Below, one piece after another: positions 57,496 to 64,000 of a DNA stretch of 64,000 bases; within the stretch, counting starts at the first letter, position 1; each line of letters starts with the position of its first letter. Source of the stretch: Candidatus Latescibacterota bacterium (GTDB lineage: Bacteria > Latescibacterota > UBA2968 > UBA8231); contig OZ253462.1 in the NCBI GenBank assembly GCA_965261395.1, positions 4,896,001-4,960,000 on the forward strand. Direction: 5' to 3'. A program made the position numbers and the translations under genes. Under the pieces are notes generated by a model that saw only the letters and a list, made by a program, of their open reading frames with translations, had not been told where the DNA came from and did not search any database.

Positions 57496-58500
57496 ATGAA
57501 CCTAGAGAAAAAGGCTATACCCGAATATCTGCAACGCAAGAAACTACTCGCCGACAGGGGCCCGATCCGCATCCAGACCTTGAGCAACGAGTTGAAAAAT
57601 AGGGTGTACTACGTGGCGTCACCCAATCAGGCTTGGATCGTCAAGCAAGCGCACTCGCGCGTCCAAATCAAGGAGCGCTGGTGGATCAATCGGCGGCGCA
57701 TCTTCGCCGAGAAGAGCTGCATCGAGCTGTTGGCGCAATTCCTCGCTCCCGAGATCCTGCCGGAAGTCTTGCTCGAAGACCGCACGGACTTCATCCTCGT
57801 GACAACCCCACCACCGCACAACGCCCTATCGTGGGAAAGCGACTTGATCAACGGCCGCATTGACCTGCAAATCGCCGTCCAGTGCGGCGAGCTACTGGCC
57901 ACCGTCCACAACGAAACAGCCGGCGCGGCCGAGGTCGCGGCCAAGTTTGCAGACACCAAGGCATTTGAGCAATTGCGCATCGACCCTCATTACAACTACG
58001 TCGCCAAGGCCTATCCCGATCTCAAAAAGGCCATTGCCGTCCACACTAACCGCCTGCTCAACGAGGGATTTTGCCTCGTCTTGGGCGACCTACGGCCCCG
58101 CAATATATGGGTCGCCAACGGCCAGCCCTATTGGGTCGATTTTGCCACCGCCCACTACGGCTACCCTGCCTTTGACCTCGCCTTCTACACGGCCGATATG
58201 TGCATCAAGGCCATGCAGAACACCGCCCAAAAAGCCGCCTATTTAGAGGCCGTCAATGTATTCTGGAACAGCTATTTTCAGAGCGCGAGCTACGAGAAGG
58301 CCGAGGAAGTCAAACACCAAGCCGTACGCGACCTCGGCTGCCTGCTGTTGAGCGCAACCGACGGCCGCCGGCCAGTAGGGCTCGATGACGAGCGCATCAT
58401 CGGGCTCTCTCGGCGCATTGCCCAGAGCCTGATTTTAACGGGGTTGGGGCGAATCGAGGACGTCACCGAGTTTGTCAATCGGACCCTGATCGACGGCTAG
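57496..58500 (+). CDS. APH/methylthioribose kinase-like phosphotransferase
   Basis: IVKQA, F.QLRIDP, GDLRPRNI, VDF..AHYG.PAFD. Confidence 0.75.
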   Translation: MNLEKKAIPEYLQRKKLLADRGPIRIQTLSNELKNRVYYVASPNQAWIVKQAHSRVQIKERWWINRRRIFAEKSCIELLAQFLAPEILPEVLLEDRTDFILVTTPPPHNALSWESDLINGRIDLQIAVQCGELLATVHNETAGAAEVAAKFADTKAFEQLRIDPHYNYVAKAYPDLKKAIAVHTNRLLNEGFCLVLGDLRPRNIWVANGQPYWVDFATAHYGYPAFDLAFYTADMCIKAMQNTAQKAAYLEAVNVFWNSYFQSASYEKAEEVKHQAVRDLGCLLLSATDGRRPVGLDDERIIGLSRRIAQSLILTGLGRIEDVTEFVNRTLIDG

Positions 58501-59233
58501 TCCGCTGCAAATCCCCGCTGCTAGATCGGATGTGCACCGCCATCGCCTGTCGCGCGGCCTCCGCATCCCGCCGCTGCAATGCCTCCAAGATCTGGTGGTG
58601 TTCCGCCAGCGAAAGTTCGGCCCGAGGGCCAGCCAGCGACGGCTCCGCTAAGCTTTCCTTGATCCATTCTTGTAGGTAGTTGCGCGTGGTTTCGAGCAAG
58701 CTGTAGAGGATGGAATTGTGCGTGGCTCGGGCAATGAGTAGGTGGAACTGCAAATCGCTAGCGAGGAAGCGTCCCTCGTCGGCCAGTCCCCCGGCCATGC
58801 CGGCCAGCGTGTCGGCAATAGCCTCCAAGTCAGCGGGCGTGGCCCGCTCGGCCGCCAAATAGGCGTTTTGCGACTCGAGCATCATCCGCGTCTCGCTCAG
58901 GTCTTGAAGCTTCTTGCCGTCGAGCAAAAACCCCCACTGCAGTGCCCGCTCCACGTATTGGCCCTTGTCGCAGACAAAGGTGCCCTCGCCCACGCGGCCG
59001 TCGAGCAGGCCCATCATGGACAACGAGCGCAGAGCTTCGCGCAGCGAGGAGCGCCCAACCTGAAAGCGCTTGCACAGCTCCCGTTCCGGCGGCAGCCTAT
59101 CGCCGGGCTTGAGGACGTTGCGCTCGATTAAGTCCGCTATCTGCGCGATGATCCCGTCGCTTACAGACGTGCGCTGCACCGGGCGCATGGCCGCGGCTGC
59201 GGCTTTCTTAGCAGAGTGGGCCAAGGTATTCAA
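58475..59233 (-). CDS. FadR/GntR family transcriptional regulator (start may be ATG 59188)
   Basis: LKPGDRLPPEREL...VGRSSLREAL...G.GTFV; FCD domain D..FH..IA.A..N, EH..I. Confidence 0.93.
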   Translation of the reverse strand: MNTLAHSAKKAAAAAMRPVQRTSVSDGIIAQIADLIERNVLKPGDRLPPERELCKRFQVGRSSLREALRSLSMMGLLDGRVGEGTFVCDKGQYVERALQWGFLLDGKKLQDLSETRMMLESQNAYLAAERATPADLEAIADTLAGMAGGLADEGRFLASDLQFHLLIARATHNSILYSLLETTRNYLQEWIKESLAEPSLAGPRAELSLAEHHQILEALQRRDAEAARQAMAVHIRSSSGDLQRTSRRSGSD

Positions 59234-59255
59234 TCGCGGATGGCGGAAAAAATAT

Positions 59256-59320
59256 TTGCCGATGGTCAGACCATTAGCTATTTTGACTAAACAGTACTCA
59301 ACCTAGCGCTTTGCTGTCAA
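59256..59320. promoter_or_regulatory. Overlapping divergent promoters with a FadR-type operator
   Basis: Plus strand TTGCCG-N17-TATTTT with palindrome ATGGTCAGACCAT (59262-59274; TGGT-N3-ACCA) in the spacer; minus strand TTGACA-N18-TACTGT. Confidence 0.75.
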
Positions 59321-59326
59321 GAGGAA

Positions 59327-59968
59327 ATGCAGATGGCACAAACTTTGGACCTTGGCTCGCGCGTCGAATTGGTCTCCATGGACCCCCACTTCGACGACAT
59401 TTCCATCGCCCTCTATTGCCCGGACGGACCCGGCCTCCCCTGTTACCAAGTCCACACCTACAGCCGGCGGCCCGGCGCGGCCGAGCGCGTCGCTGGAGTC
59501 GCCCGCGCCATGCAGGTGCTCGGGGGCATGGAACAAACGAGCGCCGGCCCCCTCAGCTTTTCCTGCGGCCACGCCCATCGGCTCGCGGTCAAGCGGATCT
59601 TCCTAGAGGCTTGCAAGCTGCCGCCGGCGCAGCCCATTGAGCCGCGTCCGCTGCACATCTTCGACAAAAAGGCCAACGCCACCATTGCCGTCGCCAGCCT
59701 CGGGCAGGGCCTATATGAGGCCCGCGCCACCGAATCGGTCCAAGGCGTAGAACGCCGCGTCACCACCATCGCCCGCGGCCTAATCCGCCTCGGCGAAATG
59801 GACGAGGTCGCCGACCAACCCAACCAAGCTCAGTTCGGCTGCGGCGAGGCACATGACGCCTTGATCGGCCTCTTGCTCGTCCGCGCCCCCAACGTGCGAG
59901 CTGCCGTGCGCGAGGCCGAATCCCTAGCCAACCGCGGCGTGCTCTCAGCCCCCAGCGCCCAGGAATAA
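59327..59968 (+). CDS. Uncharacterised protein with two internal FxCGxAH repeats
   Basis: GAGGA RBS; first gene of the corrinoid operon; see findings. Confidence 0.8.
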   Translation: MQMAQTLDLGSRVELVSMDPHFDDISIALYCPDGPGLPCYQVHTYSRRPGAAERVAGVARAMQVLGGMEQTSAGPLSFSCGHAHRLAVKRIFLEACKLPPAQPIEPRPLHIFDKKANATIAVASLGQGLYEARATESVQGVERRVTTIARGLIRLGEMDEVADQPNQAQFGCGEAHDALIGLLLVRAPNVRAAVREAESLANRGVLSAPSAQE

Positions 59969-59978
59969 GGAGTCTATC

Positions 59979-61013
59979 ATGCCCACTTCGATGACCAGCC
60001 GCGAACGCGTCCTCGCCGCCCTCGCCCGCCAGCCTGTGGACCGCACCCCGCTCTGCAACCCGACCTCGTTGGCCACCGTCGAATTGATGGACCTCGTCGA
60101 TGCCCCCTTCCCCGCGGCCAACCGCGAGCCCGAACTCATGGCGCGGCTGGCTGCCACCGGCTACACCGAGTTGGGCTTTGACACCATCATGCCGGTCTTC
60201 ACCATCATTCAAGAGTCCTCGGCCCTCGGGTGCAAAATTCAGTGGGAGCAAAAGGACAATTGGCCCACTGTCCGCATGAACGAGCCAATCTGGCACGAGC
60301 CAGACGACATCAAAATCCCCGCCGACCTCTGCACGCACCCGGACACGGCCTGCGTCACCGAGGCGATCAAGATTCTGCGCAAGGAATACGGCGACGAAGT
60401 TGCCATCGTCGGCAAGACCATGGGTCCTTGGTCGCTGGCTTACCACTGCTTCGGGGTCGAGCCTTTTCTGCTGCTGTCGCTCGACGACCCCGGCAAGACC
60501 AAGCTCTGCCTCGACCGCATGAAAGAGATCACCATCCAATTTGGGCAGGCGCAAATCGAGGCCGGTGCCGACGCCTTGACCCTGCCCGACCACGCCACCG
60601 GCGACCTCGTCAGCGGTGAGTACTACGAGCGCTATTTGCGCGACCTGCACATCGAGTTTGCCGAGCGGCTGTCCGTGCCCATCATCCTCCATATCTGCGG
60701 TCGCACGGTTGACCGCATGGAGTACATCGCTCAAACCGGCATGGCGGCCTTCCACTACGACTCCAAGAACACGCCCGAAGAATCCACCCAAATCGTGCGT
60801 GACCGCATCTCGTTAGTAGGCAACATCAACAACCCCGAGACCCTCTTTTCCAAAGGGCCGGAAGTCGTCAGCGCCGAAGTCGTGCGCAACCTTGAAGCCG
60901 GCGTCCAGCTCATCGGCCCAGAGTGCGCCATCCCCTTGCAGACCTCCATCGAAAACCTCAAGGCCATCCCCCGCACAGTGCACGAGTGGCACCGGGACCA
61001 AGCTCGCAACTAG
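59979..61013 (+). CDS. MtaA/CmuA (UroD-fold) family methyltransferase
   Basis: MTSRERVLAAL.....DR.P, GPWSLA, Q..AGAD, zinc motif ILHICG...GPEC, GNI. Confidence 0.88.
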   Translation: MPTSMTSRERVLAALARQPVDRTPLCNPTSLATVELMDLVDAPFPAANREPELMARLAATGYTELGFDTIMPVFTIIQESSALGCKIQWEQKDNWPTVRMNEPIWHEPDDIKIPADLCTHPDTACVTEAIKILRKEYGDEVAIVGKTMGPWSLAYHCFGVEPFLLLSLDDPGKTKLCLDRMKEITIQFGQAQIEAGADALTLPDHATGDLVSGEYYERYLRDLHIEFAERLSVPIILHICGRTVDRMEYIAQTGMAAFHYDSKNTPEESTQIVRDRISLVGNINNPETLFSKGPEVVSAEVVRNLEAGVQLIGPECAIPLQTSIENLKAIPRTVHEWHRDQARN

Positions 61014-61026
61014 AAGAAGAGACCCC

Positions 61027-61782
61027 ATGGCAGACATCACCGACATCGCCAACGAATTTATCCGCGAAGAGATCGAAGAGTTCATCGAGCGCGACGAAGA
61101 GCGCGAGCGCATCATCAGCCTCTTTGCCCAAGCCAGCGAACAGATGCAAAACATCGCCGCGGCCCTCATCGACGGTGAGCACCTAACAGTCGACGAGTTG
61201 ACCGGCCAAGCCATTGCCTCGGGCGTGGAGGCCACCGAAGTCATGGACAACGGGCTGATCGCCGGCATGGCTATCGTCGGCATCAAATTCCGCGAAAACT
61301 TCATCTTCGTCCCCGAAGTGTTAGCCTGCGCCCGCGCCATGAAGGCCGGCATGGCCCACATCGAGCCTATTCTCTCGGCCTCGGGCGTCGAGCCGGTCGG
61401 CGTTGTGATCATGGGCACGGTCAAGGGCGATCTCCACGACATCGGCAAAAACTTGTGCATTATGATGCTGCGCGGGTCCGGCTTCGTCGTCCACGACCTC
61501 GGCGTAGATACCTCCGAAGACCAGTTCATCGACGCAGTCGAAGAGCACGGAGCCCCGCTCTTGGGCATGTCGGCCCTGCTGACCACCACCATGCCGAACA
61601 TGGGCAAGACCATCGAGGCCTTCATCGACGCCGACTTGCGCGACGACGTCAAAATCATGGTCGGCGGCGCACCCGTGACCCAGGAATTCGCCGACGACAT
61701 GGGTGCCGACGGCTATGGCAAAGACGCCCTCGCCTGTGTGGCCTTGGCCAAGGACTTGCTGAACGAAATTGAGGACGAGTAG
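61027..61782 (+). CDS. Corrinoid (B12-binding) protein
   Basis: Cap domain GM..VG..F....FVPEV; GDLHDIGKNL (DxHxxG), SALLTTT, VGGAP, GADGY. Confidence 0.95.
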   Translation: MADITDIANEFIREEIEEFIERDEERERIISLFAQASEQMQNIAAALIDGEHLTVDELTGQAIASGVEATEVMDNGLIAGMAIVGIKFRENFIFVPEVLACARAMKAGMAHIEPILSASGVEPVGVVIMGTVKGDLHDIGKNLCIMMLRGSGFVVHDLGVDTSEDQFIDAVEEHGAPLLGMSALLTTTMPNMGKTIEAFIDADLRDDVKIMVGGAPVTQEFADDMGADGYGKDALACVALAKDLLNEIEDE

Positions 61783-61797
61783 CGCACCCAGCCTCCC

Positions 61798-63690
61798 ATG
61801 ACCCAAATCGACCCCCAAGAGTATCAAAAGAGCCTCGACCGCCTGTCGGGCATCCTCGCGGGCATCGCCACCCATGCCGACGAACAGGCGACCTTCCGCT
61901 GCCCGTACAAGAACCGCTTCGACCAGTGCACCGCCCGCTTCGGCTGCCGCAACCAGCGCAAGCCGCAAAAACCGGACGGGCTGTTCCAGTGCGGCGGCGA
62001 CGACCAACTCGATTACCGCTCGGCCTGGGAATCGGCTCAACGCCCGTCCACACCCGGTCGCGGGCAAATCCGCTGCGACAACACCTCCTACCCGCTGTCC
62101 ACTGGCGGCACCCTCTTCGACTACGCGGACCAGCTCGGCGCCCGAGTGCCCACCTCCTGCGGACGCACCGGCCATTGCCACGAGTGCATCGTCGAGGTCA
62201 CAAGCGGCGCACAAGCCCTTAGCGCACCAACGCCGGCCGAGGACTTCCTCCGTGGCGAGTTCCGGCTCGCCTGCCAAGCCAAAGTCGAAGACGCCGATGT
62301 CGATATCGAGTTCGCACCGCTTTTTCGCACGCCCCGGATACTGACCCAGACCGTGGACCGCCCCGCCGAGATTGACCCCGTAGTCCAGCGGCGAGGACAA
62401 GCTATCTACTACGGCGACGAGGAAATCGACGAGTACCGCGGCCACATCTACGGGTTAGCCATCGACTTGGGCACCACCACCATCGTCCTCGACTTAGTTG
62501 ATCTAGAAACGGGCGAGAGCGTGCAGTTGAGCGCGTTTGAAAACCCGCAGCGCTTTGGCGGCAGCGACATCATGCACCGCATTTCCTACGACGGGCAACA
62601 CCCTGGCGAACTGCGCCAATCCCTAGTCAAGGCGCTCAACCACGAGATCGAGAACCTCTGCCGGCGCGGCGGCTTTGTGCGGCAGGAGATTTACGAGATC
62701 GCAATCGCCGGCAACTCGACGATGCGCGACATCCTCTTTCGCCTCGACGTGCAGAGCATCGGCCAAAAACCCTACAAATCGAGCATTGAGCACGAATATC
62801 TAAACGGCGAACGCACCGCGACCAGCCTAGTCGAAAAGACCCGCCGCCTCGGCCTGAAGGCCAATCCCAAAGCGCGCGCGTACTCTCTGCCGCTGATTGC
62901 CAGCCACGTCGGGGCAGATGTAGCCGCCGACTTAGTCGCCGTCGATATGGACCTTACCAGCGAGAGCGCGATGCTAGTCGATGTGGGCACCAATACCGAA
63001 GTCGTCGTCGCGCACCAAGGCCGTCTCGTCGCGGCCTCCTGCCCGGCCGGCCCGGCCTTTGAGGGCGGCGGCATCACCTATGGTATGCCCGGCTGCGACG
63101 GAGCTATTGAGTCCATCCGCTGGGACGGCACGCGCTGGCAGTGGGAAACCATCGGTGACACCGCGCCGGCGGGACTGTGCGGTTCCGGGCTAATCGACCT
63201 CCTCGCCGAGTTGCGCCGCCACGATTTAATGGCCCCCAAGGGCGTCTTCGCCGACAAAAAGCGCCAGTTTGAGCTAGTCCCCGAACGCGGTATCACCTTC
63301 TCGCGCCTCGACGCCTCCAACCTCGCCCAAGCCAAAGCCGCTAATTTCTGCGGCCAGTACATCGTCTTGCGGACCTTGGGCCTGAATCCAGGCGACGTGC
63401 AACAACTCTATCTCGCCGGCGGCTTTGCCAACTACGTCGATGTCCAAGCCGCCATCGACATCGGCTTTTTGGCCCCCGTGCCCACAGCGCGCATCGCCAA
63501 GGTGGGCAACGCCGCCGTCCAAGGCGCGCGCGAAGTGCTGCTCTCCGCCGGCAAACGCGCCCGCATCGAAGCACTGGCCAAGCGCATTGAGCACGTCGAG
63601 TTGGAGACGACCCCCGACTTTTTTGAGCTCTTCGTCGAGGGCTGCCAATTCAAACCCATGCCCCTAAAACTGACCGCTGCCTCTGTCTGA
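61798..63690 (+). CDS. RACo/RamA-type corrinoid reductive activator (2Fe-2S plus ASKHA, DUF4445)
   Basis: CGRTGHCHEC...RLACQ, AIDLGTTT, NPQ.FG.D, VDVGTN.E, AGPAFEG, CGSGLID, LAGGF, GNAA. Confidence 0.9.
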   Translation: MTQIDPQEYQKSLDRLSGILAGIATHADEQATFRCPYKNRFDQCTARFGCRNQRKPQKPDGLFQCGGDDQLDYRSAWESAQRPSTPGRGQIRCDNTSYPLSTGGTLFDYADQLGARVPTSCGRTGHCHECIVEVTSGAQALSAPTPAEDFLRGEFRLACQAKVEDADVDIEFAPLFRTPRILTQTVDRPAEIDPVVQRRGQAIYYGDEEIDEYRGHIYGLAIDLGTTTIVLDLVDLETGESVQLSAFENPQRFGGSDIMHRISYDGQHPGELRQSLVKALNHEIENLCRRGGFVRQEIYEIAIAGNSTMRDILFRLDVQSIGQKPYKSSIEHEYLNGERTATSLVEKTRRLGLKANPKARAYSLPLIASHVGADVAADLVAVDMDLTSESAMLVDVGTNTEVVVAHQGRLVAASCPAGPAFEGGGITYGMPGCDGAIESIRWDGTRWQWETIGDTAPAGLCGSGLIDLLAELRRHDLMAPKGVFADKKRQFELVPERGITFSRLDASNLAQAKAANFCGQYIVLRTLGLNPGDVQQLYLAGGFANYVDVQAAIDIGFLAPVPTARIAKVGNAAVQGAREVLLSAGKRARIEALAKRIEHVELETTPDFFELFVEGCQFKPMPLKLTAASV

Positions 63691-63697
63691 GAAGGCC

Positions 63698-64000
63698 ATG
63701 CGAGAGACCACCACTCTGCGCCATCTGCTAGAGGAGACCGACCGCTTTATCACCTGCGTCGAACTGGTCACTTCCCGGGGCACCTTGGCCGACCGCAGTG
63801 GCAAGCGGGTGCTGGAGATGGCCCGCACTCTAGCTGCCGATCCGCGCTTTGACGCCCTCTCGATTACCGACAATCCCGGTGGCAATCCCATGATCACCGC
63901 GGACGCGCTGGGCACTCCGCTCAAAGAGGGCGGCCAAGAAGTCATCATCCACCTCTCCTGCAAGGATTTCAACCGCAACGGGCTGCTGGGCCAAGCCTGG
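63698..64000 (+). CDS. Methylenetetrahydrofolate reductase (3' partial; not in ORF track)
   Basis: MRETTTLRHLLEETDRFITCVEL...DALSITDNPGG...IIHLSCKDFNRNGL; frame open to the window end. Confidence 0.85.
   Translation, partial: MRETTTLRHLLEETDRFITCVELVTSRGTLADRSGKRVLEMARTLAADPRFDALSITDNPGGNPMITADALGTPLKEGGQEVIIHLSCKDFNRNGLLGQAW

Follow-up and report, generated by a model that had tools for sequence, protein, structure and literature searches.

An MtaA-like zinc methyltransferase paired with a protein family of no detectable relatives at the head of a putatively regulated corrinoid methyl-transfer operon in Latescibacterota

Corrinoid hubs that couple methionine synthesis to osmolyte demethylation were recognised in aerobic marine bacteria in 2025, with donor enzymes of the MttB type only. 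Their paradigm is the MtgBCDE system of Ruegeria pomeroyi with RamA and MetF2 (PMC12478193), and in Phaeobacter inhibens a MetH split into three parts is accompanied by a RamA-like protein and by DUF1638, which is needed together with RamA in a role that the account leaves unexplained (PMC5764234). Here we describe an operon in which such a hub appears to carry a different head, namely an MtaA-like zinc methyltransferase of the UroD family encoded beside a protein of unassigned family (UNK). The operon lies at the end of a 64,000-nucleotide stretch of DNA (the window) from a Candidatus Latescibacterota bacterium, at positions 4,896,001 to 4,960,000 of contig OZ253462.1 (G000:C1:4896001-4960000), which is a single contig of 6.55 Mb in a genome that is 95% complete.

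The UroD family includes donor-specific methyltransferases (MT1). MtaA and MtbA are MT2 enzymes that methylate a thiol, and in the MtsA/MtsB and MtpA/MtpC systems of Methanosarcina an MtaA-family zinc enzyme moves a methyl group from a thioether (dimethylsulfide, methylthiopropionate) to a corrinoid protein; we know of no UNK-like partner for either system. Type 1 mlp clusters combine an SCMT-like UroD protein bearing His-Cys-Cys with a corrinoid protein and a RACE/RACo activator, and roles in methyl-sulfur or methyl-selenium metabolism and in methionine salvage have been proposed for them (Kountz & Balskus preprint, PMC10418091). These clusters hold two or three UroD paralogues (Mlp2 and Mlp3 among them), have no tetrahydrofolate (THF) methyltransferase and occur in obligate anaerobes only. 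The Cmu and Cdm systems comprise a UroD-type MT1, a corrinoid module and a THF-methylating MT2, with an activating enzyme used in assays, and CdmB contains no zinc and groups with the O-demethylases (PMC13222342).

The new part of the operon is its obligate pair of UNK and the MtaA-like protein. Among the 80 genome loci found via UNK, to which all counts out of 80 refer (185 further genome loci lie outside them), the MtaA-like gene adjoins UNK in 78, with the corrinoid protein gene found in 67 and the gene for its RACo activator in 62. The pair stands alone in 11 of the 80, a corrinoid protein being encoded elsewhere in the genome. A reverse search of metagenome contigs via MtaA returned 419 relatives, of which 80 were kept at 79-96% identity; of the 59 loci with at least 750 bp of upstream sequence, 57 had UNK directly upstream and the other two had it about 1.65 kb upstream, and the corrinoid gene followed the MtaA-like gene in 59 of 64. 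In the window the UNK, MtaA-like, corrinoid, RACo and MTHFR genes are separated by 10, 13, 15 and 7 bp according to the list of open reading frames (ORFs) and domain scans (Table 1), in agreement with the tight operon (gaps of 7-15 bp) that an earlier note had described from this DNA.

UNK is a real and conserved protein family without a detectable relative in sequence or fold, so that the first gene is still as unassigned as that note had it. Its ORF spans 59327-59968, and the likely start is the second methionine, at 59333, as in its homologues, which gives 211 aa; the 679 homologues retrieved at E<=0.001 are nearly all 207-213 aa long and either unnamed or called 'hypothetical', and the family forms 216 clusters among 1.84 billion representatives. 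Neither Pfam nor NCBIfam gave a match at E<=0.01, the ESM Atlas gave no usable match, and a profile search of the PDB returned only chance antibody matches (E>0.1). The AlphaFold (AF2) model (pLDDT 86.8, pTM 0.83) had no Foldseek match in the PDB at E<=0.001, the best being 0.079 with a TM of 0.15. The two halves of UNK are homologous and represent an internal tandem duplication (hhalign probability 96.4%, E 1.1e-9), each half carrying a C-x3-H motif (C78/H82 and C170/H174, invariant in 20 of 20 and 22 of 22 sequences), which suggests a Cys2His2 metal site in a pseudo-dimer. The C-terminal tail, residues 199-211 (RGVLSAPSQQE-like), is near-invariant across phyla, with R201, G202, L204, P207 and S208 fully so; it is modelled as disordered (pLDDT below 50) and probably serves to dock a further component. 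When longer forms of UNK were sought, one protein alone was retrieved, a 517 aa MTHFR (P0271) encoded on a 25.5 kb contig, in which the last 145 residues share 48% identity with UNK residues 67-211 and have lost both C-x3-H motifs. This protein, a fusion or a gene-call merge, links UNK to MTHFR and is too thin a basis for the identity of UNK.

The MtaA-like protein passes the cut-offs of TIGR01463 (259 bits against 235.4) and PRK06252 (263.5 against 244) and falls below those of the MtaA/MtbA equivalog models (NF040654, 233.7 against 400; NF041608, 201.5 against 600). A search of PDB sequences returned only MtaA and UroD proteins, the sole close solved relative being MtaA of Methanosarcina mazei (4ay7, E 1.5e-52, full length). 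The H-x-C...C zinc ligands align with those of this structure, and H238, C240 and C316 occur without exception in all 22 orthologues, drawn from several phyla (mean column identity 86%), which bears out the earlier statement that the site is intact. The MtaA-like protein is conserved to a striking degree: in loci labelled Latescibacterota, Gemmatimonadota, Poribacteria, Planctomycetota and Opitutales its identity is 76-99%, against as little as 61-68% for RACo and 52-59% for UNK from these loci. The MtaA-like and corrinoid proteins are encoded by separate genes, 13 bp apart and unfused, and the window genome holds two UroD-family genes, hemE and this one. A His-Cys-Cys zinc site is regarded as the mark of S- or Se-methyltransferases within the UroD superfamily (PMC10418091, a preprint), and by analogy it suggests a methyl-sulfur or methyl-selenium substrate for the MtaA-like enzyme.

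Structure prediction supports, short of proof, the binding of UNK to the MtaA-like protein. The modelled complex has a median score of 0.88, compared with 0.00 for the best of three controls, and this mark was attained by 58 of 80 solved complexes but by just 2 of 110 mismatched pairs. At least 63% of contacts are common to the runs, and the pLDDT of the partner is 85 or more. Because UNK has no solved relative, this score cannot be a recall of a known complex. On the UNK side the predicted interface comprises residues 2-26 and 42-46, the most conserved N-terminal stretch, and on the MtaA side residues 34-43, 63-65, 91-93 and 320-328, the last segment following just after the zinc ligand C316.

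Comparative evidence supports placing the operon under a divergently encoded GntR regulator with a conserved putative operator. The regulator belongs to the FadR subfamily by its GntR winged helix and C-terminal FCD domain (Pfam), as the note had proposed; its best NCBIfam models are NanR, LldR and PdhR, each under its own cut-off, and FadR itself was rejected at 25.5 bits against a cut-off of 189. The regulator gene lies divergently beside UNK in 45 of the 80 loci. The operator consensus of the subfamily is a palindrome of the type TGGT-N3-ACCA, and the window operator fits it. In the window alone this is weak evidence, with 3 matches at up to two mismatches where 0.78 are expected. The motif TGGTC(A/T)GACCA, however, occurs at the same position in 34 of 41 intergenic regions between the GntR gene and UNK, where the identity of UNK goes down to 55-68%, and at only 49 sites across all 1.29 Mb of the loci, and it is this comparative conservation that makes the evidence strong. 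Thus the operator that the note had seen inside the promoter stands; the promoter itself was not recovered, a scan for sigma-70 promoters and terminators giving no match, and the organism may use promoters of other types. An Rfam search for riboswitches in the window and the segments L002 and L085 found none. The regulator would be a repressor of the operon, its effector is probably a carboxylate, and as a guess such a carboxylate-sensing FCD regulator would suit 3-methylthiopropionate or a similar acid.

The genes behind the pair resemble a backbone that is already known. The corrinoid protein contains the DxHxxG motif (as GDLHDIG in the translation), and its nearest NCBIfam model is MtgC_2 at 201.9 bits, under the cut-off of 370. 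The activator has the complete domain set of RACo (2Fe-2S ferredoxin, middle and ASKHA ATPase domains), with the AcsV and RamA models of NCBIfam under their cut-offs, and the full MTHFR (L002:5698-7269) has 523 aa with a Pfam MTHFR domain (4.2e-13) and a C-terminal DUF5981 (4.4e-26). A PF02310 search of the window genome identified one protein with a B12-binding domain, namely the corrinoid protein of the operon, and searches of the same genome for the MetH activation domain (PF02965), MttB (PF06253) and DUF1638 (PF07796) found none. With a single B12-binding protein and no MetH, the backbone matches split MetH and the MtgCDE-RamA-MetF2 arrangement. A second MTHFR elsewhere in the genome is a YitJ-like fusion of homocysteine methyltransferase and MTHFR. 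Three short MetE-like (Meth_synt_2) proteins, in ORFs of 346-383 aa, are also encoded (G000:C1:695769-696749, 216466-217488 and 282914-283771); they may be 'core' methionine synthases that likewise depend on the single corrinoid protein.

The window holds no MttB, MtaB or MeTr-type gene, as had been noted, and MttB and MtaB are missing from the genome as a whole. Reading the downstream sequence for MttB or a pterin-binding methyltransferase, a check set beforehand, confirmed this only in part: no MttB was present, but a MeTr-type Pterin_bind methyltransferase (L085:8393-9421) and a homocysteine S-methyltransferase (L085:10457-11446), with an esterase-like gene between them, lie 21 kb downstream. 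Directly after MTHFR come a SurA-like PPIase and then type IX secretion cargo and TPR genes, none of them a methyltransferase. In the survey of synteny, UNK and MtaA proved adjacent almost throughout and the operons of relatives continued beyond MTHFR: a Pterin_bind (MeTr/AcsE-like) methyltransferase follows MTHFR in 20 of the 80 loci and a homocysteine methyltransferase in 32, and the full series UNK, MtaA-like, corrinoid protein, RACo, MTHFR, pterin-binding methyltransferase and homocysteine methyltransferase occurs in 9, of which 8 have the divergent GntR gene. A further 19 of the 80 have the form homocysteine methyltransferase, UNK, MtaA-like, corrinoid protein and RACo, with neither a pterin-binding methyltransferase nor MTHFR within 8 kb. 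Since both methyltransferases follow MTHFR in relatives, the backbone is of the described split MetH or MtgCDE type and no stand-alone new pathway; what survives of the candidate new demethylation system without an MT1, as first suggested, is the novelty of the pair.

Between MTHFR and the pterin-binding methyltransferase of the window genome, the stretch of about 21 kb (L002:6908-19471 and L085:1-8196; genome 4960908-4982196) encodes, in addition to the PPIase and a SASA esterase, TPR/FG-GAP proteins and several cargo proteins of the CHU_C/type IX secretion kind; in L003 and L007, from the nearest relatives, the pterin enzyme comes within 0.5-0.8 kb after MTHFR. A small PF13769 protein is a frequent companion of the operons in relatives.

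The module is near-core in the class to which the window belongs and is kept with or without MetH. UNK occurs in 125 of the 168 genomes in the phylum, in 122 of 131 in the class and in 2 of 36 elsewhere. None of the 30 genomes in the genus of the window has MetH. A complementary distribution of UNK and MetH was expected and is ruled out by the sister family f4, which has both (MetH in 29 of 31 genomes, UNK in 30 of 31); because of this co-occurrence with full MetH, the module is more than a MetH substitute. It occurs in at least 419 metagenome stretches, and its carriers include Latescibacterota, Poribacteria and metagenome-assembled genomes labelled Gemmatimonadota, sponge symbionts of several phyla and many uncultured environmental bacteria. 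Two of the five other carrier genomes surveyed were checked for other routes of methyl entry. One, with the form that begins with homocysteine methyltransferase, has full-length MetH and FolP and no stand-alone pterin-binding methyltransferase; the other has a single B12 protein, the cluster's own, and FolP only. Judged by gene content, no route other than MtaA-UNK is visible by which a methyl group could reach the corrinoid protein in either genome.

Taken together, these results lead us to favour, with a little better than even confidence, a reading of the operon as the regulated front end of a corrinoid methyl-transfer hub in which MtaA-UNK is a two-subunit MT1. MtaA-UNK is read as donor-specific because some carriers have no other visible methyl entry and homocysteine methyltransferase is a natural outlet; moreover, since the UroD family includes MT1 enzymes, the MtaA-like protein is itself most likely the MT1, and the earlier statement that the operon has no recognisable substrate-specific MT1 is in that form unsupported. 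In such a hub, RACo would keep the corrinoid protein as Co(I) at the cost of ATP, and the corrinoid protein would shuttle methyl groups among three methyltransferases. The MtaA-like protein and UNK would form a heteromeric, substrate-specific zinc MT1 taking the methyl group from its donor, a candidate being a methyl-thioether or methyl-selenoether such as methylthiopropionate, dimethylsulfide or methanethiol. The MeTr-like pterin-binding enzyme would exchange methyl groups with THF, with a tie to the MTHFR of the operon, and homocysteine methyltransferase would make methionine. GntR would repress the operon at TGGTC(A/T)GACCA until its effector, probably a carboxylate, is bound. Gene content, conservation, the footprint of the operator, the predicted binding of UNK to MtaA and the lack of MetH and MttB are results of the analysis; from these we infer the direction of methyl flow and the nature of the donor, as well as repression and effector. 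The more specific proposal that the pair is a new B12-dependent demethylase of two subunits for an abundant methyl-sulfur or methyl-selenium compound (methylthiopropionate, dimethylsulfide, methanethiol), passing the methyl group to homocysteine or THF via one corrinoid protein in non-methanogenic, largely aerobic bacteria, is tentative, and we would rate its chances at clearly under even.

Several points weigh against this reading. The closest characterised relatives, MtaA and MtbA, are MT2 enzymes, so the direction of transfer could be the reverse. The interface segment 34-43 of the MtaA-like protein (VELMD...) recurs as a conserved stretch in methanogen MtaA, an enzyme without UNK, and the patch may therefore serve otherwise, e.g., in docking of the corrinoid protein. 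The 21 kb that separate the pterin-binding and homocysteine methyltransferases from the operon in the window genome leave room for separate regulation. The flanks of the clusters are variable and contain no recurrent donor-specific transporter or catabolic gene, the genes seen there being PhyH, GNAT, HicB, ADH, PIG-L, a PQQ propeller, a beta-lactamase-like protein and glycosidases, and near-universal, single-copy presence in the class suits housekeeping more than niche catabolism. The His-Cys-Cys rule comes from a preprint, and CmuA may depart from it. All members are known from sequence and models only.

The first alternative turns the direction around. MtaA-UNK would be an MT2 that passes a methyl group from the corrinoid protein, loaded from methyl-THF by the pterin enzyme, to a thiol or selenol, so that, in parallel to methionine synthesis, a methyl-sulfur compound is produced or sulfide, selenide or methanethiol is detoxified. 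The nearest characterised relatives are methylcobamide:coenzyme M methyltransferases, by 4ay7 (E 1.5e-52) and by PRK06252 and TIGR01463 above their cut-offs; a His-Cys-Cys zinc site activates thiols (PMC10418091), and MTHFR and the pterin-binding methyltransferase share one operon with the pair in relatives. Patterns of gene content weaken this alternative, however, and we consider it unlikely: the 19 loci of the form headed by homocysteine methyltransferase have no pterin-binding methyltransferase or MTHFR within 8 kb, and if MtaA-UNK were a mere outlet, the two checked carriers without a stand-alone pterin-binding methyltransferase would be left with no source of methyl groups.

By a second alternative, which such patterns weaken as well and to which we give a rather small probability, the whole cluster is nothing but the cell's B12-dependent methionine synthase, and MtaA-UNK is an integral accessory that stands in, as a non-orthologous substitute, for the pterin-binding module or for the function of DUF1638. 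The window genome, with its single corrinoid protein and without MetH or DUF1638, would fit, as would the carrier that has only the B12 protein of the cluster and no pterin-binding methyltransferase, the near-universal and single-copy occurrence of the module in the class, and the required yet unexplained part played by DUF1638 in Phaeobacter (PMC5764234). Yet the pterin-binding methyltransferase occurs in the same operon as the module in 20 of the 80 loci, full-length MetH stands alongside UNK in nearly all of f4, and UNK stays with MtaA in the 11 loci where the corrinoid protein and RACo are elsewhere. Repression by a GntR/FCD protein would also be unusual for methionine biosynthesis, and the riboswitch search was negative.

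A third alternative is that the UroD enzyme demethylates a halomethane, like CmuA or Cdm, or a methoxylated aromatic, like an O-demethylase, with the methyl group going to THF and MTHFR; TIGR01463 spans MtaA and CmuA, cmu clusters also carry metF, and vanillate demethylation is under carboxylate-sensing GntR/FCD regulators in some bacteria. Although Cmu and Cdm likewise pair a UroD-type MT1 with a corrinoid module and a THF MT2 (PMC13222342), we regard this alternative as improbable, since it is weakened by the absence of a fusion to the corrinoid domain as in CmuA, by the retention of both Cys zinc ligands, one or both of which are replaced in O-demethylases (PMC10418091), where CdmB for its part has no zinc (PMC13222342), by a PDB sequence search that gave only MtaA and UroD proteins, and by homocysteine methyltransferase as a recurrent neighbour.

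Table 1. Coordinates of the operon and adjacent features in the window.
Feature	Position	Strand	Remarks
APH-fold kinase	57496..58500	+	Pfam APH 5.6e-14; convergent with regulator
FadR-subfamily GntR regulator	58475..59233	-	Pfam GntR 9.8e-18 and FCD 7.5e-26; divergent from operon
Putative palindromic operator ATGGTCAGACCAT, core TGGTC-A-GACCA	59262..59274	.	Centre about 65 bp upstream of UNK start
UNK, 211 aa	59333..59968	+	No known family; predicted partner subunit of MtaA-like enzyme
MtaA-like UroD-fold zinc methyltransferase	59979..61013	+	Pfam URO-D 2.8e-63; His238-Cys240-Cys316
Corrinoid protein (B12 cap and B12-binding)	61027..61782, inside ORF 60892-61782	+	B12-binding 7.4e-27, B12-binding_2 1.1e-18
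RACo/RamA-type ATP-dependent reductive activator	61798..63690	+	RACo_C_ter 7.7e-64, Raco_middle 9e-41, Fer2 8e-9
MTHFR, 5' part	63698..64000	+	Cut at window end; full gene ends at window-equivalent 65269

RNA-library contigs from three metatranscriptome studies are near-identical to the operon (e.g., 59444-61353 with 6 differences); such contigs are no proof that the genes are transcribed or share one operon transcript, and they were not counted as evidence, the uncovered parts being equally uninformative. The APH-fold kinase gene shares 26 bp with the regulator gene at the 3' end of the latter, and its product has a weak, partial N-terminal match to methylthioribose (MTR) kinase (TIGR01767, 45.5 bits against a cut-off of 275). 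The kinase gene is a neighbour of the regulator in 34 of the 80 loci, and a few metagenome loci have it immediately upstream of UNK in the same orientation; it is also seen in company with lipoyl synthase. It is possible that the kinase belongs to the system, with a tie to methylthio compounds.

Between the corrinoid gene and RACo, where the window operon has no insert, small ORFs occupy 0.7-4 kb in several close relatives (L003:10450-11867, L005, L013, L014, L016, L019, L021 and L022). One inserted ORF family weakly resembles a Tse2-like ADP-ribosyltransferase toxin domain (E 6.7e-7), and together with the small ORF behind it looks like a toxin-immunity cassette. In four metagenome loci (L150, L151, L152 and L158), a distant S-methyl_trans-like gene, 29-31% identical to the homocysteine methyltransferase, is inserted between the MtaA-like and corrinoid genes.

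If the demethylase proposal is correct, it would reveal an unrecognised route to methionine and of organosulfur methyl cycling, as well as a metal-binding partner of a new fold. The UNK-MtaA operon appears to represent a second and widespread version of the corrinoid hub, whose proposed donor enzyme, a zinc methyltransferase of methanogen type, is firmly tied to a protein family without known relatives or fold. Identification of the substrate would add a B12-dependent step to sulfur/selenium and C1 cycling in the sea and in the sponge holobiont, would give a conserved 'hypothetical protein' a function, and would explain methionine synthesis in genomes without MetH or full-length MetE.

Full-text literature searches, which did not cover supplements such as Dataset S2 / Fig. 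4 of PMC12478193, found no paper describing the UNK-MtaA cluster, and its place is best seen by comparison with the systems introduced above. Like MtaA of Methanosarcina (4ay7), the MtaA-like enzyme has a UroD TIM-barrel fold, with alignment over the full length and His-x-Cys...Cys ligands; unlike MtaA, it is bacterial, is paired with UNK, and scores below the MtaA/MtbA equivalog cut-offs. No coenzyme M context is evident around it, genes for coenzyme M biosynthesis not having been searched for. MtsA and MtpA, compared here by description only, are the mechanistic model for the proposed MT1 role, but are archaeal and have coenzyme M as the acceptor.

CmuAB and CdmBCA resemble the cluster in combining a UroD-type enzyme with a corrinoid component; CmuA is, however, fused to its corrinoid domain, unlike the MtaA-like protein, and Cmu and Cdm are described with neither a UNK partner nor a homocysteine methyltransferase (PMC13222342). 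Unlike type 1 mlp clusters, which are described without UNK, the present cluster type has a single UroD gene together with UNK, a pterin-binding methyltransferase, a homocysteine methyltransferase and MTHFR (PMC10418091).

The closest likeness is to Ruegeria and Phaeobacter (PMC12478193; PMC5764234). As in these bacteria, a stand-alone corrinoid protein would be common to a donor-specific MT1, a bidirectional pterin-binding methyltransferase and a homocysteine methyltransferase, accompanied by a RamA/RACo-type activator and a second MTHFR copy, with no canonical MetH and with MtgC_2 as the nearest corrinoid model. The parts of a split MetH are present as a separate B12-binding protein in the window and pterin-binding and homocysteine-binding methyltransferases 21 kb downstream. 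In contrast to both organisms, the genes are clustered under a GntR/FCD regulator, the carriers are not Alphaproteobacteria, and MtgB (MttB family) and DUF1638 are absent, with a UroD zinc enzyme and UNK in their place. The design would thus be that of Ruegeria (MtgBCDE/RamA/MetF2), except that UNK and the MtaA-like enzyme take the place of MtgB and stand first in the operon.

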